A stretch of 64,000 nucleotides of DNA from a virus. Taxonomy: Duplodnaviria > Heunggongvirae > Uroviricota > Caudoviricetes. Below the pieces are notes generated by a model. The model did not search any database, was not told where the DNA came from, and was given only the letters and a program-made list of their open reading frames with translations. The stretch covers positions 122,688-186,687 of the IMG/VR virus record IMGVR_UViG_2834277561_000001. One strand, written 5' to 3'. This document shows positions 20,963 to 63,635 of this stretch, piece by piece. The translations under genes were made by a program, and so were the position numbers. Every line of letters begins with the position of its first letter. Position 1 is the first letter of the stretch.

Positions 20963-21061
20963 TTCATTAAAAGCGCCAATTGAATAAAAAAGAACCTCAA
21001 GGTATGATTGAGTTGCATCTTGGCGGATGTAAACAAAACAATCAAGCACTGGAGGTTCCAA

Positions 21062-22351
21062 ATGAATTATACACAGAATGAAAAGATTGAGCAAGTAACA
21101 GATTCAACAATGGTTGTCGGAGTTGATATCGGAAGCCAGATACATTATGCAAGAGCTTTTGATAACAGAGGACGCGAACTTACAAAACGTATTTTTTCTT
21201 TTCATAACGATCTGGAAGGGTTCAATTCTTTCAACCTTTGGGCAGAGACACTTAAGACTGAGAATAAAAAGACTGCAGTTCTGATCGGCTGCGAGCCAAC
21301 AGGTCATTACTGGTTTGCGTTTGCGAAGTATGTAAATGATCATCAGAAAAGATTAGTAATGGTCAATCCATTCTCGGTTAAGAAGATCAAGGAACTTGAT
21401 GATAACAGTCCAAAGAAAACAGATTCAAAAGATCCAAAAACAATCGCAAAACTAGTTGTGGATGGGAGATATTCAATCCCATACATGCCAGAAGGCATTT
21501 ATGCCGAAATAAGAGACCTGGTATACAGCCGTGACAGGATCATGAAGCAGCACAACATATCTGCAAACAGGATCCAGAGATGGCTTGCAATACATTTCCC
21601 GGAATATCTGGGATTATACACACGATTTGATGCAATAAGCGGCCTGGCAGTGCTTGAAAAAGCACCATTGCCAAAAGATGTGATCGCGCTTGGAGTAAAT
21701 GGGATCCGAAAGATCTGGCATGATAAAAAGATGCGTGGCAGAGGAGTTACTGAAGATAGGGCAAAGACCCTGGTTGAAGCTGCGCACAACAGTGTTGGAC
21801 TTGACGGAGGGATTGGAACAAAAAGTGAATTATATATGCTGCTTGAAGAGCATCGCTTATGGACTTCGCAGTTAGAAGCCGTCAATAAAGTACTTGAGGA
21901 AATGATCCTAAAAGTACCACATGTGGAGAAGTTACTCGCCATTAAAGGAGTAGGGAGCATCACAATAGCAGGATTCATAGCTGAGGTAGGTGATATCAGA
22001 CGCTTTGATTCACCGAAACAGATCCAGAAGTATGCAGGACTGGAACTGGTAGAAAACAGTTCAGGAAAGCATAAAGGAAGGACGAGGATCAGCAAACGCG
22101 GGAGAAGGAAACTCAGAAAGATCCTGTATCAGGTAATGGTACCGCTGCTTGCAAGAAACAAGGAGTTCCGTGGAATCTATGATTACTATGTAACCCGTGT
22201 AAAGAATCCGCTGAAACGAAGGCAGGCAATGGTTGCCGTCAGCTGTAAGTTGATCCGAGTGTTTTATGCGGTATTAACGAAAGGTGTGGAGTATGACAGA
22301 TTTAAAATGATGTCAGATATCCACCGAAAAAGCGACATAATAGCTGCCTGA
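21062..22351 (+). CDS. IS110-family transposase
   Basis: N-terminal VVGVDIGSQIHYA (DEDD/RuvC-like) and C-terminal Transposase_20-like region AIKGVGSITIAGFIAEVGDIRRFDSPKQIQKYAGL; GGAGG ribosome-binding site. Confidence 0.85.
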   Translation: MNYTQNEKIEQVTDSTMVVGVDIGSQIHYARAFDNRGRELTKRIFSFHNDLEGFNSFNLWAETLKTENKKTAVLIGCEPTGHYWFAFAKYVNDHQKRLVMVNPFSVKKIKELDDNSPKKTDSKDPKTIAKLVVDGRYSIPYMPEGIYAEIRDLVYSRDRIMKQHNISANRIQRWLAIHFPEYLGLYTRFDAISGLAVLEKAPLPKDVIALGVNGIRKIWHDKKMRGRGVTEDRAKTLVEAAHNSVGLDGGIGTKSELYMLLEEHRLWTSQLEAVNKVLEEMILKVPHVEKLLAIKGVGSITIAGFIAEVGDIRRFDSPKQIQKYAGLELVENSSGKHKGRTRISKRGRRKLRKILYQVMVPLLARNKEFRGIYDYYVTRVKNPLKRRQAMVAVSCKLIRVFYAVLTKGVEYDRFKMMSDIHRKSDIIAA

Positions 22352-26019: not shown

Positions 26020-26901
26020 ATGGGATGCGGATCATGGACAAGTAAAAGTTTTACTAGCTATGCAAACAGCAGAGGAATGGATGTTTCCACAAGCGGGGCT
26101 ATTTTAGGAAATTACTCAAATCAGGAAATTTTCAAATCTCGAAGTATCAATCCTGCACTTTCACCTGTAAATATCATGAGAGAATGCTGTGACAACGATG
26201 AACATCCAAATACCGTCCCAGTGGTACTAGGCTTGGATGTGACTGGATCGATGGGTGATGCAGCAGTTGAAATTGCTAAGAAACTCAATGTAATTATGAC
26301 AAAACTGTATGAAAAAGTAACTGATGTCGAATTTATGATCATGGGTATTGGAGATTTGTCTTATGATGATTGTCCTATTCAGATTTCACAGTTTGAATCA
26401 GATATCAGAATTGCGGAGCAGCTGGATAAACTTTATTTTGAATTTGGTGGCGGCGGCAACGGATTTGAATCCTATACAGTAGCATGGTATATGGGATCTC
26501 GCCATACAAAACTTGATTGTCTGTCTCGTGGTAAAAAAGGAATAATCATCACAATTGGAGATGAACAACTTAATCCTTATCTCCCGTTAAGAGGTAGATA
26601 TTGTGGACTTGAAGATGCAACAGGTGATAAATTACAGGCAGACATTGAAACAAAAGATCTTTACGAAGAAACATCTAAAAAATTCAATATCTATCATCTG
26701 GATGTTCAGCATGGACGAAGATGGGATGAAGATGAAATTGAAACATCTTTTAAAAAATATCTCAAAGATGATCATTTCAGAAGAGTTTCTATGGACAGCA
26801 TCGCAAATGAAATTGTAGATATTGTAGTCAGCGAAGTAGAGAATAATAAAACAGAAGAACCAGTAGTTACATCTGGGAATTCTGAGGAAATTACATGGTA
26901 A
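26020..26901 (+). CDS. von Willebrand factor A (vWA) domain protein
   Basis: MIDAS motif LDVTGSMGD. Confidence 0.7.
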   Translation: MGCGSWTSKSFTSYANSRGMDVSTSGAILGNYSNQEIFKSRSINPALSPVNIMRECCDNDEHPNTVPVVLGLDVTGSMGDAAVEIAKKLNVIMTKLYEKVTDVEFMIMGIGDLSYDDCPIQISQFESDIRIAEQLDKLYFEFGGGGNGFESYTVAWYMGSRHTKLDCLSRGKKGIIITIGDEQLNPYLPLRGRYCGLEDATGDKLQADIETKDLYEETSKKFNIYHLDVQHGRRWDEDEIETSFKKYLKDDHFRRVSMDSIANEIVDIVVSEVENNKTEEPVVTSGNSEEITW

Positions 26902-26959
26902 GATAGGAGTTTTTAGAATAAGTAAATTTATAGATATAACGGGGTATAAGTATAACCAC

Positions 26960-27685
26960 TTGACTGTACTTAGAAGAGGGCCAGATTTAATTAAAAAGGA
27001 TGGGAAAAAACAGACTAGGTGGTACTGTTCCTGTGATTGTGGAAGTGATAAAGAAGTGTTGGTTCTTGGATACAATTTAAAAAATGGAAATACAACTTCT
27101 TGTGGATGTGAACATTTAAAAAATGCAATGAGAAGCGGAAAATTAACAGGAAGAATAAATGGCAAAAGGAATAAAAAATTTAATTCTTATGATTTGTCAA
27201 GAGAATATGGAGTAGGGTTTACGTCTAAAAATGAAGAATTTTACTTTGATTTAGAAGATTACGATAAGATTAAAAATTATTGTTGGCATATAAATAATGA
27301 TGGATATGTTGCTAATAAAACAGAAGAAGGATGCATTCTAATGCACAGATTAGTAATGGGATTGTCGAAAGGGGATCACCGGGAAGTAGATCATATATAT
27401 CATAAAACTAATGATAATAGAAAAGATCAATTAAGAATAGTTTGTTCTTCTGAAAATAAGATGAATCAAGGTATTCCTTCAAATAATACTAGTGGATATA
27501 GAGGTGTTTATTATGATAAGCAGTATGATAGATGGTCGGCAGAAATTGTAGCTTATAACCATAAATTTCGACTAGGGTATTTTACTAACAAATCCGACGC
27601 TGTTAAAGCAAGAAAACAAGCAGAGGAAAAATATTTTGGAGAATATAATTATCGAGGAGGTGATGCATCCTATGAAAAACCTTAA
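26960..27685 (+). CDS. HNH homing endonuclease with AP2 DNA-binding domain
   Basis: HNH block DHREVDHIYHKTNDNRKDQLRIVCSSENKMN; AP2 block SGYRGVYYDKQYDRWSAEI...RLGYF..KSDAVKARKQAEEKY; N-terminal LTVLRR; TTG start, with the true start possibly upstream and non-canonical. Confidence 0.8.
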   Translation: MTVLRRGPDLIKKDGKKQTRWYCSCDCGSDKEVLVLGYNLKNGNTTSCGCEHLKNAMRSGKLTGRINGKRNKKFNSYDLSREYGVGFTSKNEEFYFDLEDYDKIKNYCWHINNDGYVANKTEEGCILMHRLVMGLSKGDHREVDHIYHKTNDNRKDQLRIVCSSENKMNQGIPSNNTSGYRGVYYDKQYDRWSAEIVAYNHKFRLGYFTNKSDAVKARKQAEEKYFGEYNYRGGDASYEKP

Positions 27686-28785
27686 AGTTATCATAGGAGC
27701 CTGAGAATTTTGGGGATGAGGGAAAAGGAATGATGACAGATTTCTTTTCCCAGAAATCAAACAGCATTGTAGTGTGTTCAAACGGCGGAGCACAACGCGG
27801 ACATACCGTAGTAACTCCAGATGGAATCAGACATGTCTTTCATCATTTTGGTTCCGGAGCATTTAATGGAGCAAGCACGTATTTACCAGAAGATTTTATC
27901 TTAAATCCAGTTGTTTTCCGCCAGGAATTACACGAGCTTTACAGAGTAAAGCATCTTCCCGCAACATATATTCATAATGATTGTATGGTCACAACTCCAT
28001 GGGATATGATGGCAAATCAGATTGTTGAAGAAAGTCGTGGTAAGAATAAACATGGAAGTTGTGGCATGGGAATTTTTGAAACAATTACACGCTACAAGGC
28101 GGGAGTAGTTGATTTAGATTCTTCTATTCGCGATTATTATTTGGAACGGTTTTCGGAAGAAAATATACAGTTATCTGATTCATGGAAAACTCTTATTATG
28201 AATGATGATATATTCGATCATTTCTTAGATGATTTGGATTTTATGAACGAATATTGTTCTGTAATTTCTGATGACTATTTTCTAAATCTATTCGATAACA
28301 TTGTATTCGAGGCAGGACAGGGTTTACTACTTGATCAGAACAATCTTGAATATTTTCCAAATTTAACTCCTTCAAATACAGGCATTAAAAATCCTAAGAA
28401 AATTATTGAACGTGTTGAGTGGAATGATGAGATCGAGATAGAAACCTGTTATGTTACAAGAACATATATGACGAGACACGGTGCGGGCAAGTTTCCTACT
28501 GAATGTAATAAATCGGTAATTAATGGAAAAATGTTTGATAAAACAAATGTACCTAATATTCATCAGAATTCATTAAGATACGGAACATTAGATTACGAAG
28601 AATTATGTAGTAGATGTTCAAACGATGTTAAAGATTTTGGGGATAAAAAATCTATTGCTATCACACATTGCAATGAATTTCCATATGATTCAAATAAAAT
28701 CTCTGAAATATTTAAAGGATGGGATATTTACTATTCTAATGGAGAAATTCGGGACAGTATCAATAGAAAGTGTGATAGTTTATGA
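27672..28785 (+). CDS. adenylosuccinate synthetase homologue (PurA/PurZ-like), N-terminus requires a +1 frameshift at 27702
   Basis: Frame A reads MKNLKVIIGA then TGA; the +1 frame reads ENFGDEGKGMM..VVCSNGGAQRGHTV...FEAGQGLLLD...TRHGAGKFPTE, matching E. coli PurA MGNNVVVLGTQWGDEGKGK..GGHNAGHT..FEGAQGTLLD..TRVGAGPFPTE. Confidence 0.7.
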
Positions 28786-29078
28786 AAAAAGATAATAGAG
28801 AAATTCATATTTGGTTAGACGATCCGCCGTGTATAGTGAATGCATGTACTTCATATTTTTGTACTAGAGATTTATTTGATATAAATGAGAAAATTATTCA
28901 CACTACGCAAACACATTTTTGTTCGTTCAGATATCATAGAAGAATTTTTGTACATGTAAATGGTGGTGTACATGAAATTAAAATTGGTGAAACAGAAGGT
29001 ACGAATAGGGAAATTCGCGAAGGACATAATATTGAGAAAATGTTATTTGCTGGAGAATTTGACTGGTTTAGGGAGTAA
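28782..29078 (+). CDS. hypothetical protein
   Basis: ORF of 98 aa. Confidence 0.5.
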   Translation: MKKDNREIHIWLDDPPCIVNACTSYFCTRDLFDINEKIIHTTQTHFCSFRYHRRIFVHVNGGVHEIKIGETEGTNREIREGHNIEKMLFAGEFDWFRE

Positions 29079-29083
29079 AGAAA

Positions 29084-29452
29084 ATGTCTACAGGATTTAA
29101 TTGGTTTAAGTCATATAAAATCACAATCCATCGAGCAACAAAAATGTGGGATTGGGATGAACACAAGATTGAATATATAGGTGGAGGTAGTACTTCTCAT
29201 TCAGGACATAATATTTCAGTTGTTCAAGATCTTATTGAAAAATATAGTGGAAAGAGAATTCCTACAATAGAAGAAGATTTTATAAGTTCAGAAGATGAAA
29301 ATTTGCATTTAATTAATCCGAAAGAAATGTCAGAAATTTGTGAAAGAATATTATCTGGAAATGAAGTAAACGAAACAGACCTGAGAAGTCGTATTCAATG
29401 GTTCAAAACCTTGTCGGATGAAGGATATTATCTATCGTATGATTATATGTAA
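29084..29452 (+). CDS. hypothetical protein
   Basis: ORF of 122 aa. Confidence 0.5.
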   Translation: MSTGFNWFKSYKITIHRATKMWDWDEHKIEYIGGGSTSHSGHNISVVQDLIEKYSGKRIPTIEEDFISSEDENLHLINPKEMSEICERILSGNEVNETDLRSRIQWFKTLSDEGYYLSYDYM

Positions 29453-29487
29453 TAGAATGAAATCAGAGTTTTGAGGGATGTAATAAT

Positions 29488-29775
29488 ATGTGGAAAAGAA
29501 ATAGCGATATTTTCCCTGGTGAATGGGTTGGTACGTATCATGAAAAAGAATTGGAAAAAGAATTAGAAATAGGTGATCACGCAAAAGTAATTGTTGATTC
29601 TCAATTTCAAGATTATTTTATCAATACTGGCAAAAAATATCCAAGAGCTATTGGGAAAATTGGGATTGTTAAGAAAATTTGTACAGATGATGAATGGGCG
29701 TATTTCTTATCATTTGGACACGAGATGTGTTCAAATTGGTTTAAAAGATATTCCTTAGAAAAAATTGAAAGTTAG
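29488..29775 (+). CDS. hypothetical protein
   Basis: ORF of 95 aa. Confidence 0.5.
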   Translation: MWKRNSDIFPGEWVGTYHEKELEKELEIGDHAKVIVDSQFQDYFINTGKKYPRAIGKIGIVKKICTDDEWAYFLSFGHEMCSNWFKRYSLEKIES

Positions 29776-29787
29776 AGGATGTAATAC

Positions 29788-29985
29788 GTGAGAAAATATT
29801 TAATGGAAGTAGATCGATTTATAGGTATAGATACTTATGATCCAGACGCATGTGAAAAATGTAAATATGGATTCGATACGGAGTCTAAAATGGTAGATTT
29901 TATCAAAAATGAATTAGGATTTTTTGATGAAATACGAGGCATCTATAAATTAGAAAAAATTGATCCTAAAAAATACAATAATTAA
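29788..29985 (+). CDS. hypothetical protein
   Basis: ORF of 65 aa. Confidence 0.45.
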   Translation: MRKYLMEVDRFIGIDTYDPDACEKCKYGFDTESKMVDFIKNELGFFDEIRGIYKLEKIDPKKYNN

Positions 29986-30020
29986 GATTCTGAAATGCGT
30001 GTTTCAAGGAGGTGTTGAAA

Positions 30021-50673: not shown

Positions 50674-50747
50674 TGGGCATTCGCCAAGCGGTAAGGCACA
50701 GCACTTTGACTGCTGCATTTTCGTTGGTTCGAATCCAACATGCCCAG
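50674..50747 (+). tRNA. tRNA-Gln (anticodon UUG)
   Basis: Acceptor TGGGCAT/ATGCCCA, D-arm GCCAAGCGGTAAGGC, anticodon stem CAGCA/TGCTG with loop CTTTGAC, T-arm GTTGGTTCGAATCCAAC; close to E. coli tRNA-Gln. Confidence 0.8.
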
Positions 50748-50751
50748 TTAA

Positions 50752-50832
50752 GCGGATATGGCGGAATGGCAGACGCAGAAAACTCAAAATCTTCCGGAGA
50801 AATTCGTGTGGGTTCAAGTCCCACTATCCGTA
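50752..50832 (+). tRNA. tRNA-Leu (anticodon CAA) with long variable arm
   Basis: Acceptor GCGGATA/TATCCGT, anticodon loop CTCAAAA, long variable arm, T-arm TGGGTTCAAGTCCCA. Confidence 0.7.
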
Positions 50833-51148
50833 TTAGGCTAATATTTGTAAGTAAGTTGCTGAAGCGCAAGGTGATTGAAAACAAAATTAGGCCTAAAGTT
50901 ATAACTTTTAACGCGTGTTGTGATCTGGAACCGAGTAAAGTTGGGGCTACGGCATACTGGTTGTATGGTTTGGGTATGCATTTTTTGAGTCAACTACAAT
51001 GACGAGGGTTGTGGTGAAATGGCGAGGATGTCGGGGTAACGCCGATGTGTAGTCGTAGTTGATTAGAAATATCTTTCAAGTTCAGTGCAACGAGAGAAAG
51101 ATGAACAGAACGTAAGCTTAGTATATCTTTCCTTTCTAGCATTAAACC
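50833..51148 (+). other. structured non-coding region between tRNA-Leu and the tRNA-like element
   Basis: No credible ORF; multiple inverted repeats such as GCATAC..GTATGC and AGTTG..CAACT; ORFs reported here overlap tRNAs or are low-complexity. Confidence 0.3.
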
Positions 51149-51219
51149 TGCTCGTTGGTGCAATGGTAGCACAATGGGGACGACTCCTAGTGATAAAGGT
51201 TCGATTCCTTTGCGGGCAA
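51149..51219 (+). tRNA. tRNA-like element: canonical acceptor, D-arm and T-arm but aberrant anticodon arm (pseudo-tRNA or noncanonical tRNA)
   Basis: Acceptor TGCTCGT/GCGGGCA with two G-U pairs, D-arm GTGCAATGGTAGCAC, T-arm AAAGGTTCGATTCCTTT; anticodon region ATGGGGACGACTCCTAG lacks U33. Confidence 0.3.
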
Positions 51220-62996: not shown

Positions 62997-63635
62997 ATGG
63001 ACAACAATTTAATAACAACGTTTGAAGCACTTCTAAATAAAGTAGATAGAGACGGAATGGATAAATTACTTATCTTTATTAAGAAAAGTGATTTTTATAC
63101 GGCTCCGGCAAGCACCAGGTTTCACTCCTGTCATGAAGGAGGACTTCTTGAACATACCATGAACGTGTATAACTGCTTGCTTTCTAAAAAGAAAAATCCC
63201 ATTTGGGCAGAGAAACTTGCCGAAATTCCAGATGAATCACTTATTATTTCTGCGCTTTTACATGACTTATGTAAGACGTATTTTTATGGTTCTGAATTAA
63301 AAAATCAGAAAACATATGATGAAGAAAAAATCAATGCCGCAAATCCACGCATGGTCAAAAGCGATTCTAATGGCAAATTCATTTGGGAAACGGTACCGAA
63401 ATATGTTGTGGATGATAAAATTCCATATGGACATGGCGAAAAGTCAGTCATGATGATCGAAGAATATATCAGATTGACGCCTTCTGAAAGATACGCGATC
63501 CGTTGGCACATGGGGTGGTCTGAACCGAAAGAAAATTATAATGCTCTCGGCGCAGTATTTGGCAAATATCCGTTGGCACTTGCATTACACGAAGCAGATC
63601 AGGAAGCTACATATTTACTGGAAAAGGAAGAATGA
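62997..63635 (+). CDS. HD-domain phosphohydrolase (YhaM-like HD)
   Basis: RFHSCHEGGLLEHTMNV ... LLHDLCK (H..H...HD). Confidence 0.65.
   Translation: MDNNLITTFEALLNKVDRDGMDKLLIFIKKSDFYTAPASTRFHSCHEGGLLEHTMNVYNCLLSKKKNPIWAEKLAEIPDESLIISALLHDLCKTYFYGSELKNQKTYDEEKINAANPRMVKSDSNGKFIWETVPKYVVDDKIPYGHGEKSVMMIEEYIRLTPSERYAIRWHMGWSEPKENYNALGAVFGKYPLALALHEADQEATYLLEKEE

Follow-up and report, generated by a model that had tools for sequence, protein, structure and literature searches.

A homing endonuclease cassette breaks the reading frame of a phage PurA-like gene: a possible case of rescue by +1 frameshifting

The closest described counterpart of the locus analysed here is the mobA/gene 60 system of T4-like phages, in which a homing endonuclease gene (HEG) is linked to the translational recoding of a topoisomerase II gene. 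The mobA element consists of the HEG and an insert-encoded homologous region (homR) sharing 67-81% identity with its parental counterpart; at the right-hand end of the element lies a frame-breaking insert which, unlike the polymorphisms, blocks nicking, and the recoded open reading frame (ORF) overlaps that of the HEG out of frame (bioRxiv 10.1101/2022.08.31.505936; PMC5009743). Among +1 frameshifts, the yeast antizyme site GCG_UGA_C, an Ala codon followed by UGA, is efficient (37% intrinsic), and in prfB the UGA is followed by a C in almost every case (PMC5009743). We analysed a 64,000-nt stretch of phage DNA (IMG/VR record IMGVR_UViG_2834277561_000001, positions 122,688 to 186,687; hereafter the window, in whose coordinates all positions are given), where a cassette carrying an HNH HEG adjoins a PurA-like (adenylosuccinate synthetase-like) gene whose reading frame is broken. 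In the most far-reaching interpretation, to which we give a probability of roughly 45%, the locus would represent a second natural class of HEG-linked recoding, in which a 4-nt 'immunity' insert makes a +1 shift at GCC_UGA_G obligatory, without prfB-type signals and perhaps with the assistance of a hairpin. No earlier account of this locus was found in the searchable literature.

A first-pass annotation of this DNA had proposed that the PurA-like gene is split over two frames, and this is indeed what the sequence contains (all features of the gene, the cassette and the upstream neighbour lie on the + strand). ORF1 (27672..27704) starts at ATG 27672-27674, encodes MKNLKVIIGA (beta-strand 1) and ends at TGA 27702-27704. 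The remainder of the protein, ORF2 (27703..28785), lies in the +1 frame, begins with ENFGDEGKG... and comprises 360 codons plus a stop codon at 28783-28785, with the P-loop GDEGKG encoded at 27712-27729. We could also confirm that the +1 frame is shut by TAG 27694-27696 and has no start before the P-loop: after the TAG it reads GAG CCT GAG AAT TTT GGG GAT GAG GGA AAA GGA ATG ATG, and its first start codon is ATG 27730, with no earlier ATG, GTG or TTG. A +1 shift can join both frames only within 27697-27702. The candidate shift site, GCC_UGA_G (27699..27705), lies here, with an AGGAG at 27695-27699 that overlaps G27699 of the GCC codon.

Skipping T27702 yields a 370-aa protein that matches the Pfam Adenylsucc_synt profile from position 1 (E=1.9e-32, 113 bits, cutoff 27), which bears out the proposal of an adenylosuccinate synthetase homologue whose P-loop is reachable only via a +1 shift. 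The further claim of a nearly position-for-position match to PurA stands in that the alignment starts at profile position 1, but not at the junction itself; the joined product reads GA-E-NFGDEGKG, one residue more than the GA-NFGDEGKG of PurA and the intact alleles, and HMMER places a gap there. The intact relative MT835469.1 (L001), a gut phage, encodes MKDIKIVIGANFGDEGKG in a single frame, and its DNA homology to the window starts exactly at 27672. Compared with every intact allele, the window has a net insertion of 4 nt before the P-loop codons (GGAGC[CTGAG]AATTTT vs GGAGC[A]AATTTT), which we write as TGAG 27702-27705 and which forms the right-hand end of the cassette.

The TGAG junction is genuine, and not an assembly error. 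The sequence ATA GGA GCC TGA G AAY is identical in 18 independent contigs (the window and 17 others), drawn from IMG/VR, ENA, Logan and an NCBI isolate genome, and in all of them ATAGGAGCC-TGAG-AAY follows directly after the HEG C-terminus. The 17 further carriers were found through HEG homology (L018), N-truncated protein calls (L058-L061), junction patterns (L056, L062-L071) and a cluster look-up (L121). When the pattern permitted any 4 nt at the insert position, only TGAG was recovered. Searching by the pattern of the cassette's own N-terminal patch alone revealed no cassette without TGAG; this patch-only pattern had 0 matches in genome contigs, and in viral contigs exact copies of the patch (AAAGTTATCATAGGAGCC) numbered 4, all of them chance occurrences in unrelated DNA. 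The carriers span at least 4 PurA-like lineages with 56-75% protein identity. Uninterrupted relatives number hundreds overall, and those from viral contigs (12), genomes (46) and databases (about 190) are all in frame. The frameshifted alleles are a scattered minority among intact ones, and have near-identical intact twins; in the window's protein cluster (at least 90%), 6 of the 15 listed members are frameshift-type 351-aa calls, and the intact twins share the downstream protein.

Comparison with cassette-free genomes leaves little doubt about the origin of the frame break. In these genomes, the stop codon of a vWA-like gene of no assigned function (phrog_2971; 26020..26901 in the window, with conserved synteny in L001, L002, L018 and L118-L122) is directly followed by the Shine-Dalgarno (SD) sequence and ATG of the PurA-like gene, with no HEG. 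In the window, a mobile cassette of ~790 nt (26919..27705) lies between these elements, comprising the HEG, its own PurA-like codons 1-10 and the 4-nt insert, all of which is missing from near-identical genomes. The resident SD TAGGAG (26904..26909), which serves the PurA-like gene in cassette-free genomes, here precedes the HEG at the left border of the cassette, whose edge falls right after it (window TGGTAAGATAGGAG / TTTTTAGAATAAG vs L002 TGGTAAGGTAGGAG / ATCATAGAAGATGAAAGAC, with the slash marking the edge). Relative to the window, L002 has 97.5% identical flanks, lacks 26919-27671 and has its N-terminus in frame. There are only 2 mismatches in the 1080 nt of 27706-28785, but 27672-27705 is a diverged patch with ~10/34 nt changed and 4 inserted; the ORF1 codons are ~70% identical at the DNA level to the parental codons they replaced. 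This comparison identifies 26919-27705 as one foreign segment, and the frame break is therefore almost certainly its right-hand end, making the neighbouring endonuclease, already suspected in the first-pass annotation, the cause of the split gene. A second pair of genomes shows the same pattern: L121 (frameshifted) and L122 (intact, without 26919-27671) have 0 mismatches in the 1137 nt right of the junction. The cassette of L121 differs from that of the window at 12/787 nt.

The HEG ORF (26960..27685) encodes 241 aa from a TTG codon, and its stop codon (TAA 27683-27685) lies inside ORF1, giving an overlap of 14 nt in different frames. The protein matches phrog_374/phrog_99, 'HNH endonuclease' (E~9e-34), and by blastn the HNH endonuclease of Geobacillus virus E3; it has an AP2-like C-terminal domain, for which the match is weak. 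The HEG frame is also open and conserved (ISKFIDITGxKYxHLTVL) 5' of TTG 26960, its first canonical start (26905-26960), and an AUA at 26918, 8 nt past the resident AGGAG, is kept in other cassettes. This suggests that the HEG uses a weak, non-canonical start near AUA 26918. Towards its right-hand end, the cassette carries its own SD GGAGGTG (27656..27662), 9 nt upstream of ATG 27672 and invariant in all cassette haplotypes. It also contains a cassette-specific hairpin (27669..27698) with perfect 8-bp arms, UCCUAUGA (27669-27676, which includes the AUG) and UCAUAGGA (27691-27698), and a predicted stability of -12.2 kcal/mol (z=-3.5, with 0/200 shuffles as stable). Both arms are invariant in all frameshifted alleles and have no counterpart in intact ones. 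The ORF1 AUG is sequestered in the 5' arm, while the 3' arm stops at the codon before GCC; the hairpin may, among other possibilities, couple translation to that of the HEG, mask the internal AGGAG or act as a 5' stimulator.

Several observations show that the cassette moves independently of the gene that it interrupts. Among carriers, the HEG has a dS of 0.14-0.99, vs 1-3 for the PurA-like gene. L056 and L062 have an identical HEG although their PurA-like genes share only 77% aa identity, and the L066 and L071 HEGs differ by a dS of 0.007, vs 0.34 for the PurA-like gene. More generally, identical HEGs are found beside PurA-like genes that are 77-90% identical, and different HEGs beside PurA-like genes that are 97% identical. 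In 6 pairs of genomes, the cassettes (~780 nt) differ at 0-4 positions, while divergence sets in ~850 nt to the left of TGAG and, on its right, after 9-42 nt. The HEG has also decayed in some genomes, with a nonsense codon in L064 and an HNH-core deletion common to L059 and L060/L061 (at least 2-3 independent lesions). An apparent premature stop in L070 (OQVT01048956.1, 1479 nt) was not used as evidence of a lesion, as this 1.5-kb contig, with a cassette remnant and the first 165 PurA-like codons, has unrelated, GC-richer DNA on both sides; it was either misassembled as a chimera or carries a fragment that has been transferred to another location.

The element thus has the family domain, the presence/absence pattern with sharp edges, the incongruent phylogeny and the degenerate copies of a free-standing HEG. 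Judged from these alignments, its sharp edges, its presence or absence on otherwise identical haplotypes and the decay of its HEG are signatures of an actively homing element, and one that has evidently spread among PurA-like genes only 56-75% identical to each other, in gut Clostridia phages. Free-standing HNH-AP2 HEGs of other phages likewise have an HNH core and an AP2-like C-terminus, an intergenic position by a conserved target, presence/absence polymorphism and decay. However, at those loci the downstream gene is uninterrupted, and the frame-breaking insert occurs only in this lineage; no frame breaks were found downstream of related HEGs at 19 other loci. At two loci (L033 2495-2560 and L035 ~3270), related HNH endonucleases (44-46% identical) are found directly upstream of a different P-loop gene, MSRKFGKKKEVNLNPLSYNIGIAGLSGVGKTT, whose start overlaps the HEG stop in L033. 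This HEG family may generally target the 5'/P-loop-coding ends of nucleotide-binding genes. We also noted that the first 21 nt of the intact alleles L001-L010 are identical (ATGAAAGACATTAAGATTGTG), synonymous sites included, although the proteins are only 66-75% identical; ATGAAAGACATTAAGATTGTG could be the recognition sequence of the endonuclease or reflect a translation-initiation constraint.

The resemblance to mobA/gene 60 is considerable. In both systems, a free-standing HEG moves as a unit with a diverged copy of the target segment that it replaces (here 30 nt, ~70% identical), a frame-breaking insert sits at the element's right-hand end, and the recoded ORF overlaps the HEG ORF out of frame. 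Element-free, near-identical genomes also exist in each clade, and the HEG is sometimes lost or decayed. However, the insert is 4 nt here vs 50 nt (or 20 nt) in the T4 system, the start of the target is replaced instead of the gene being split in two, and the target is a PurA-like gene of Clostridia phages instead of a topoisomerase II gene of T4-like phages. The locus also lacks matched take-off and landing codons, a take-off stem-loop and a nascent-peptide signal (ORF1 has only 10 codons), and with these bypass features missing, the implied event is a +1 shift and not a hop. While both recoding and immunity have been shown experimentally for T4, we infer them here. The locus appears to work like mobA/gene 60 but fails to show its defining bypass features, and is at most a HEG-linked +1 frameshift variant of it.

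The locus has almost certainly arisen by insertion of an HNH HEG at a phage PurA-like gene, exactly between SD and start codon, with the cassette supplying its own SD, ATG and diverged codons 1-10, and then TGAG before the P-loop codons. By analogy with the T4 system, it might work as follows. The nuclease presumably cuts naive genomes in or next to the conserved start/P-loop-coding DNA, and a cut close to 27700 would agree with how tightly co-conversion is bounded on the right. The recoded codons and the 4-nt insert would then disrupt the target, rendering the carrier immune to its own nuclease. The cost of this immunity would be the frameshift; a ribosome stalled with UGA in its A site and GCC held by tRNA-Ala may shift +1 and read GAG AAU UUU. 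The rescued product, MKNLKVIIGA-ENFGDEGKG..., would have an extra residue before the P-loop (predicted junction peptide VIIGAENFGDEGK), and its level would probably be reduced. Granted a cassette origin of the break, we consider it an even bet that carriers owe protection from their own nuclease to the insert and that a +1 shift at GCC_UGA_G rescues expression, probably weakly.

Such an arrangement would recall the 'savior indel', as in the G-run mutants of the herpes simplex virus thymidine kinase, where low-level compensatory frameshifting is thought to be sufficient. In both cases, the indel is advantageous for a separate reason, and a trickle of frameshifting supplies the product. However, the thymidine kinase mutants involve a homopolymeric run and drug selection, whereas here the advantage is proposed to be nuclease immunity, and the site lacks a slippery run.

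For making a protein that includes the P-loop, a +1 shift was the only route that withstood closer inspection. Stop-codon reassignment or read-through was rejected since frame 0 past the TGA gives no PurA-like sequence, and termination-reinitiation or a non-AUG start within 27697-27729 since the +1 frame has no NTG or ATN codon there. A 4-nt hop to the canonical protein would require a cognate landing codon, yet neither a matching GCC nor a matching GGA occurs in register. We also found no phage suppressor or odd tRNA; the three tRNA genes (Gln-TTG, Leu-CAA and Ser-CGA, at 50674-51219) have no expanded anticodon loop. As for the site itself, the yeast antizyme site, Ty3 (GCG_AGU_U) and the tail gene of Listeria phage PSA (a Pro codon by a stop codon) share with GCC_UGA_G a P site occupied by an Ala or Pro codon, an A site holding a stop or slow codon, and no need for good re-pairing. 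However, these cases are eukaryotic or involve other codons and tRNAs, and the yeast cases need a near-cognate tRNA-Ala reading GCG. To our knowledge, nothing comparable has been described for GCC in Bacillota.

Of the other explanations for the split gene, three can be given little weight. That the gene is in fact intact and the indel arose in assembly or sequencing, one of the alternatives raised in the first-pass annotation, has nothing but the a priori frequency of such errors in its favour, and we discount it almost entirely: the insertion is 4 nt long and not in any homopolymer, the same 4 nt recur in all 18 contigs from varied studies and assemblers (the isolate genome included), and they sit in a 34-nt patch with ~10 more substitutions. 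A native, autoregulated +1 programmed frameshift of the PurA-like gene, stimulated by AGGAG as in prfB, had also been suggested. Like prfB, the locus has a short ORF1 leading to an in-frame UGA, a main ORF in the +1 frame and a purine-rich, SD-like motif on the 5' side, and its junction is kept in all 18 contigs. The analogy nonetheless breaks down on closer comparison. The SD-like element of prfB sits 3 nt 5' of the shift codon, but the AGGAG here overlaps, and ends within, the P-site codon; the slip codon is GCC instead of CUU, with poor re-pairing to CCU (a first-position mismatch) and hence no +1 re-pairing potential; and the base after UGA is G instead of C. GCC_UGA_G is also not ancestral to the gene, being confined to alleles with the HEG cassette and absent from all cassette-free orthologues (the in-frame viral, genomic and database relatives counted above), and there is no RF2 feedback logic. 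We regard a native prfB-like frameshift as very improbable. Hardly more probable is that the functional product is the N-truncated protein from ATG 27730, without strand 1 and the P-loop. Gene callers do annotate the ORF from this position (RHG20090.1), but the product would be missing the invariant GDEGKG phosphate-binding loop, alleles of lineage A (GKGKLTDYY) have no ATG near 27730, and the P-loop codons 5' of the ATG are intact even in alleles whose detection did not depend on them (L018, L058-L061 and L121).

The remaining alternative deserves to be taken seriously, and we consider it quite plausible, if short of an even chance: the same cassette acts without any recoding, the 4-nt insert silences the PurA-like gene, and the HEG homes fast in temperate phages for which the gene is dispensable. 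The frameshifted ORFs would then look intact since the insertions are recent or have been repeatedly replaced by recombination. This would agree with frameshifted and intact twins being identical downstream, with the scattered distribution of the frameshifted alleles, and with the remnant of a cassette whose HEG is dead being itself less old than the flanking DNA (3.2% vs 9-23% divergence). Rescue by a +1 shift, by contrast, has to contend with an intrinsically weak site: re-pairing of GCC with CCU is poor, the UGA is followed by G, the AGGAG is misplaced for a prfB-type SD action, and scans for Rfam elements, terminators and promoters found nothing above chance, with no known 3' stimulator or Rfam element. 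The shifted product may also be inactive, since it has an extra residue at a spacing, (I/C)G-xxx-GD(E/C)GKG, that is fixed in 191/191 relatives. Loss of the single nucleotide T27702 would place the same product in one frame, but no such allele was ever observed, and an in-frame, 'repaired' GAENFGDEGKG protein was found 0 times among the 202 proteins retrieved. The near-identical intact twins indicate that most insertions are very young, and intact ORFs therefore prove little. Finally, the terminal ~85 nt of the HEG and the 5' end of intact alleles are conserved at the nucleotide level as well, so this conservation does not single out a recoding signal.

On the other side of the balance, all 14/14 complete frameshifted ORFs are intact (354-360 codons), including those next to dead HEGs; there are 0 secondary lesions in these ORFs, vs at least 2-3 in the shorter HEG of the same genomes. 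Nor is there an excess of amino-acid changes in two individual alleles. On the tip leading to L060, a dead-HEG allele, we counted 12 synonymous and 9 nonsynonymous changes (omega ~0.18), compared with 25 and 21 in three intact sisters pooled (Fisher p=1), and the changes specific to L065 have an omega of ~0.2. The sequence GTT RTC ATA GGA GCC TGA G AA is invariant across cassette lineages, although their HEGs vary at 70/143 synonymous codons (49%) and have a dS of up to ~1; a dead gene should drift freely. Some lineages (lineage A) have no in-frame start near the P-loop, even after it. The PurA-like family is under strong purifying selection (omega ~0.1) in hundreds of phages, so a cassette that always kills the gene should carry a cost, and yet the cassette is old enough for its HEGs to have diverged to 72% aa identity. 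Two further comparisons were discarded as evidence of function. Pairwise dN/dS between frameshifted alleles (omega 0.07-0.2) mostly reflects divergence that predates the invasion, the HEG being far less diverged; and L059/L060 do not form a clean pair after HEG death, as the flanks are older than the remnant (3.2%) and the gene is mosaic over its 3' 270 nt.

The first-pass annotation had also likened the protein to PurZ, the phage enzyme of 2-aminoadenine (Z) genomes, but the residues of the active site point to a PurA-type (PF00709) enzyme. The motifs GDEGKG and GGAQRGHT (with the catalytic His in GHT) are invariant, and D14 is kept in 20 relatives. Phage PurZ and PurZ0 have Ser in place of the catalytic Asp13 (E. 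coli PurA numbering) in 100% of cases, while 99% of PurA keep Asp (PMC12884076); here, the Asp of GDEGKG is retained throughout. The family profile likewise matches bacterial PurA structures in the PDB (4e-22) much better than the PurZ of phiVC8 (6FM1, 6e-4) or S-2L (7ODX, 0.03), and its matches to PurZ structures cover only the N-terminal ~60 aa. None of the partner genes DatZ, MazZ, DpoZ, DutZ and DmtZ was found within the 64-kb window, which agrees with the earlier failure to see a DpoZ homologue; the window instead encodes a DnaE-type Pol III alpha, together with a primase-helicase and a C5 methylase. For the HD hydrolase reported at 62997, the match is below the Pfam cutoff. What the protein does share with PurZ/PurZ0 is being a phage-borne PF00709 homologue of ~365 aa, with the PHROG family label '2-aminooxy adenylosuccinate synthetase'.

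The family nevertheless differs from classical PurA. Only profile positions 1-282 of the 416 in PF00709 align, leaving a C-terminal third that does not align to PurA, and Gln takes the place of PurA Asn38 in every relative. This phage family may therefore use another substrate or cofactor than classical PurA. In many uninterrupted relatives (P0003, P0077, P0095 and L120), GDEGKG is replaced by GDCGKG; the P0003 cluster has 1010 member sequences.

The 351-aa protein called in the window (27730-28785) is RHG20090.1, 'adenylosuccinate synthase [Blautia obeum]'. Its gene lies on a 763.6-kb contig from an isolate in culture, so that the window is part of a prophage and Blautia obeum is its host. 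Uninterrupted relatives are found in Ruminococcus, Lachnospiraceae, Mediterraneibacter, Robinsoniella and Clostridium genomes. The annotation of RHG20090.1 starts after the P-loop, with the frameshift and missing N-terminus unannotated; it is thus wrong at the N-terminus whether the gene is rescued or silenced, and gene callers systematically miss the effect of the cassette.

If the shift is real, the gene 60 bypass of T4 would no longer be an isolated case. Protecting the carrier by breaking a frame, and leaving the repair to the ribosome, would then be a strategy that recurs and has been solved mechanistically in two ways or more (by a 50-nt hop and by a 4-nt/+1 shift). On this view, recoding would have been taken up repeatedly by selfish elements, through different mechanisms, allowing them to enter highly conserved coding DNA while sparing the gene. 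Bacteria would also gain a further +1 site, with UGA after Ala-GCC, that functions without the signals of prfB and is open to experiment, as the carrier is a prophage of a cultured isolate. Should the gene be silenced instead, the locus would still be a clean natural case of homing at the expense of a conserved auxiliary metabolic gene, which the element knocks out as it spreads.

Two other features of the surrounding phage region may be mentioned. Directly downstream of the PurA-like gene, 28786-29992 has an identity of only ~91% to L002 (4000-4932), and 29472-29992 has no L002 counterpart, which marks a further mosaic or replacement module. About 5 kb upstream of the cassette, the phage region also contains an ORF for an IS110-family transposase (DEDD_Tnp_IS110 and Transposase_20) at 21008-22351.

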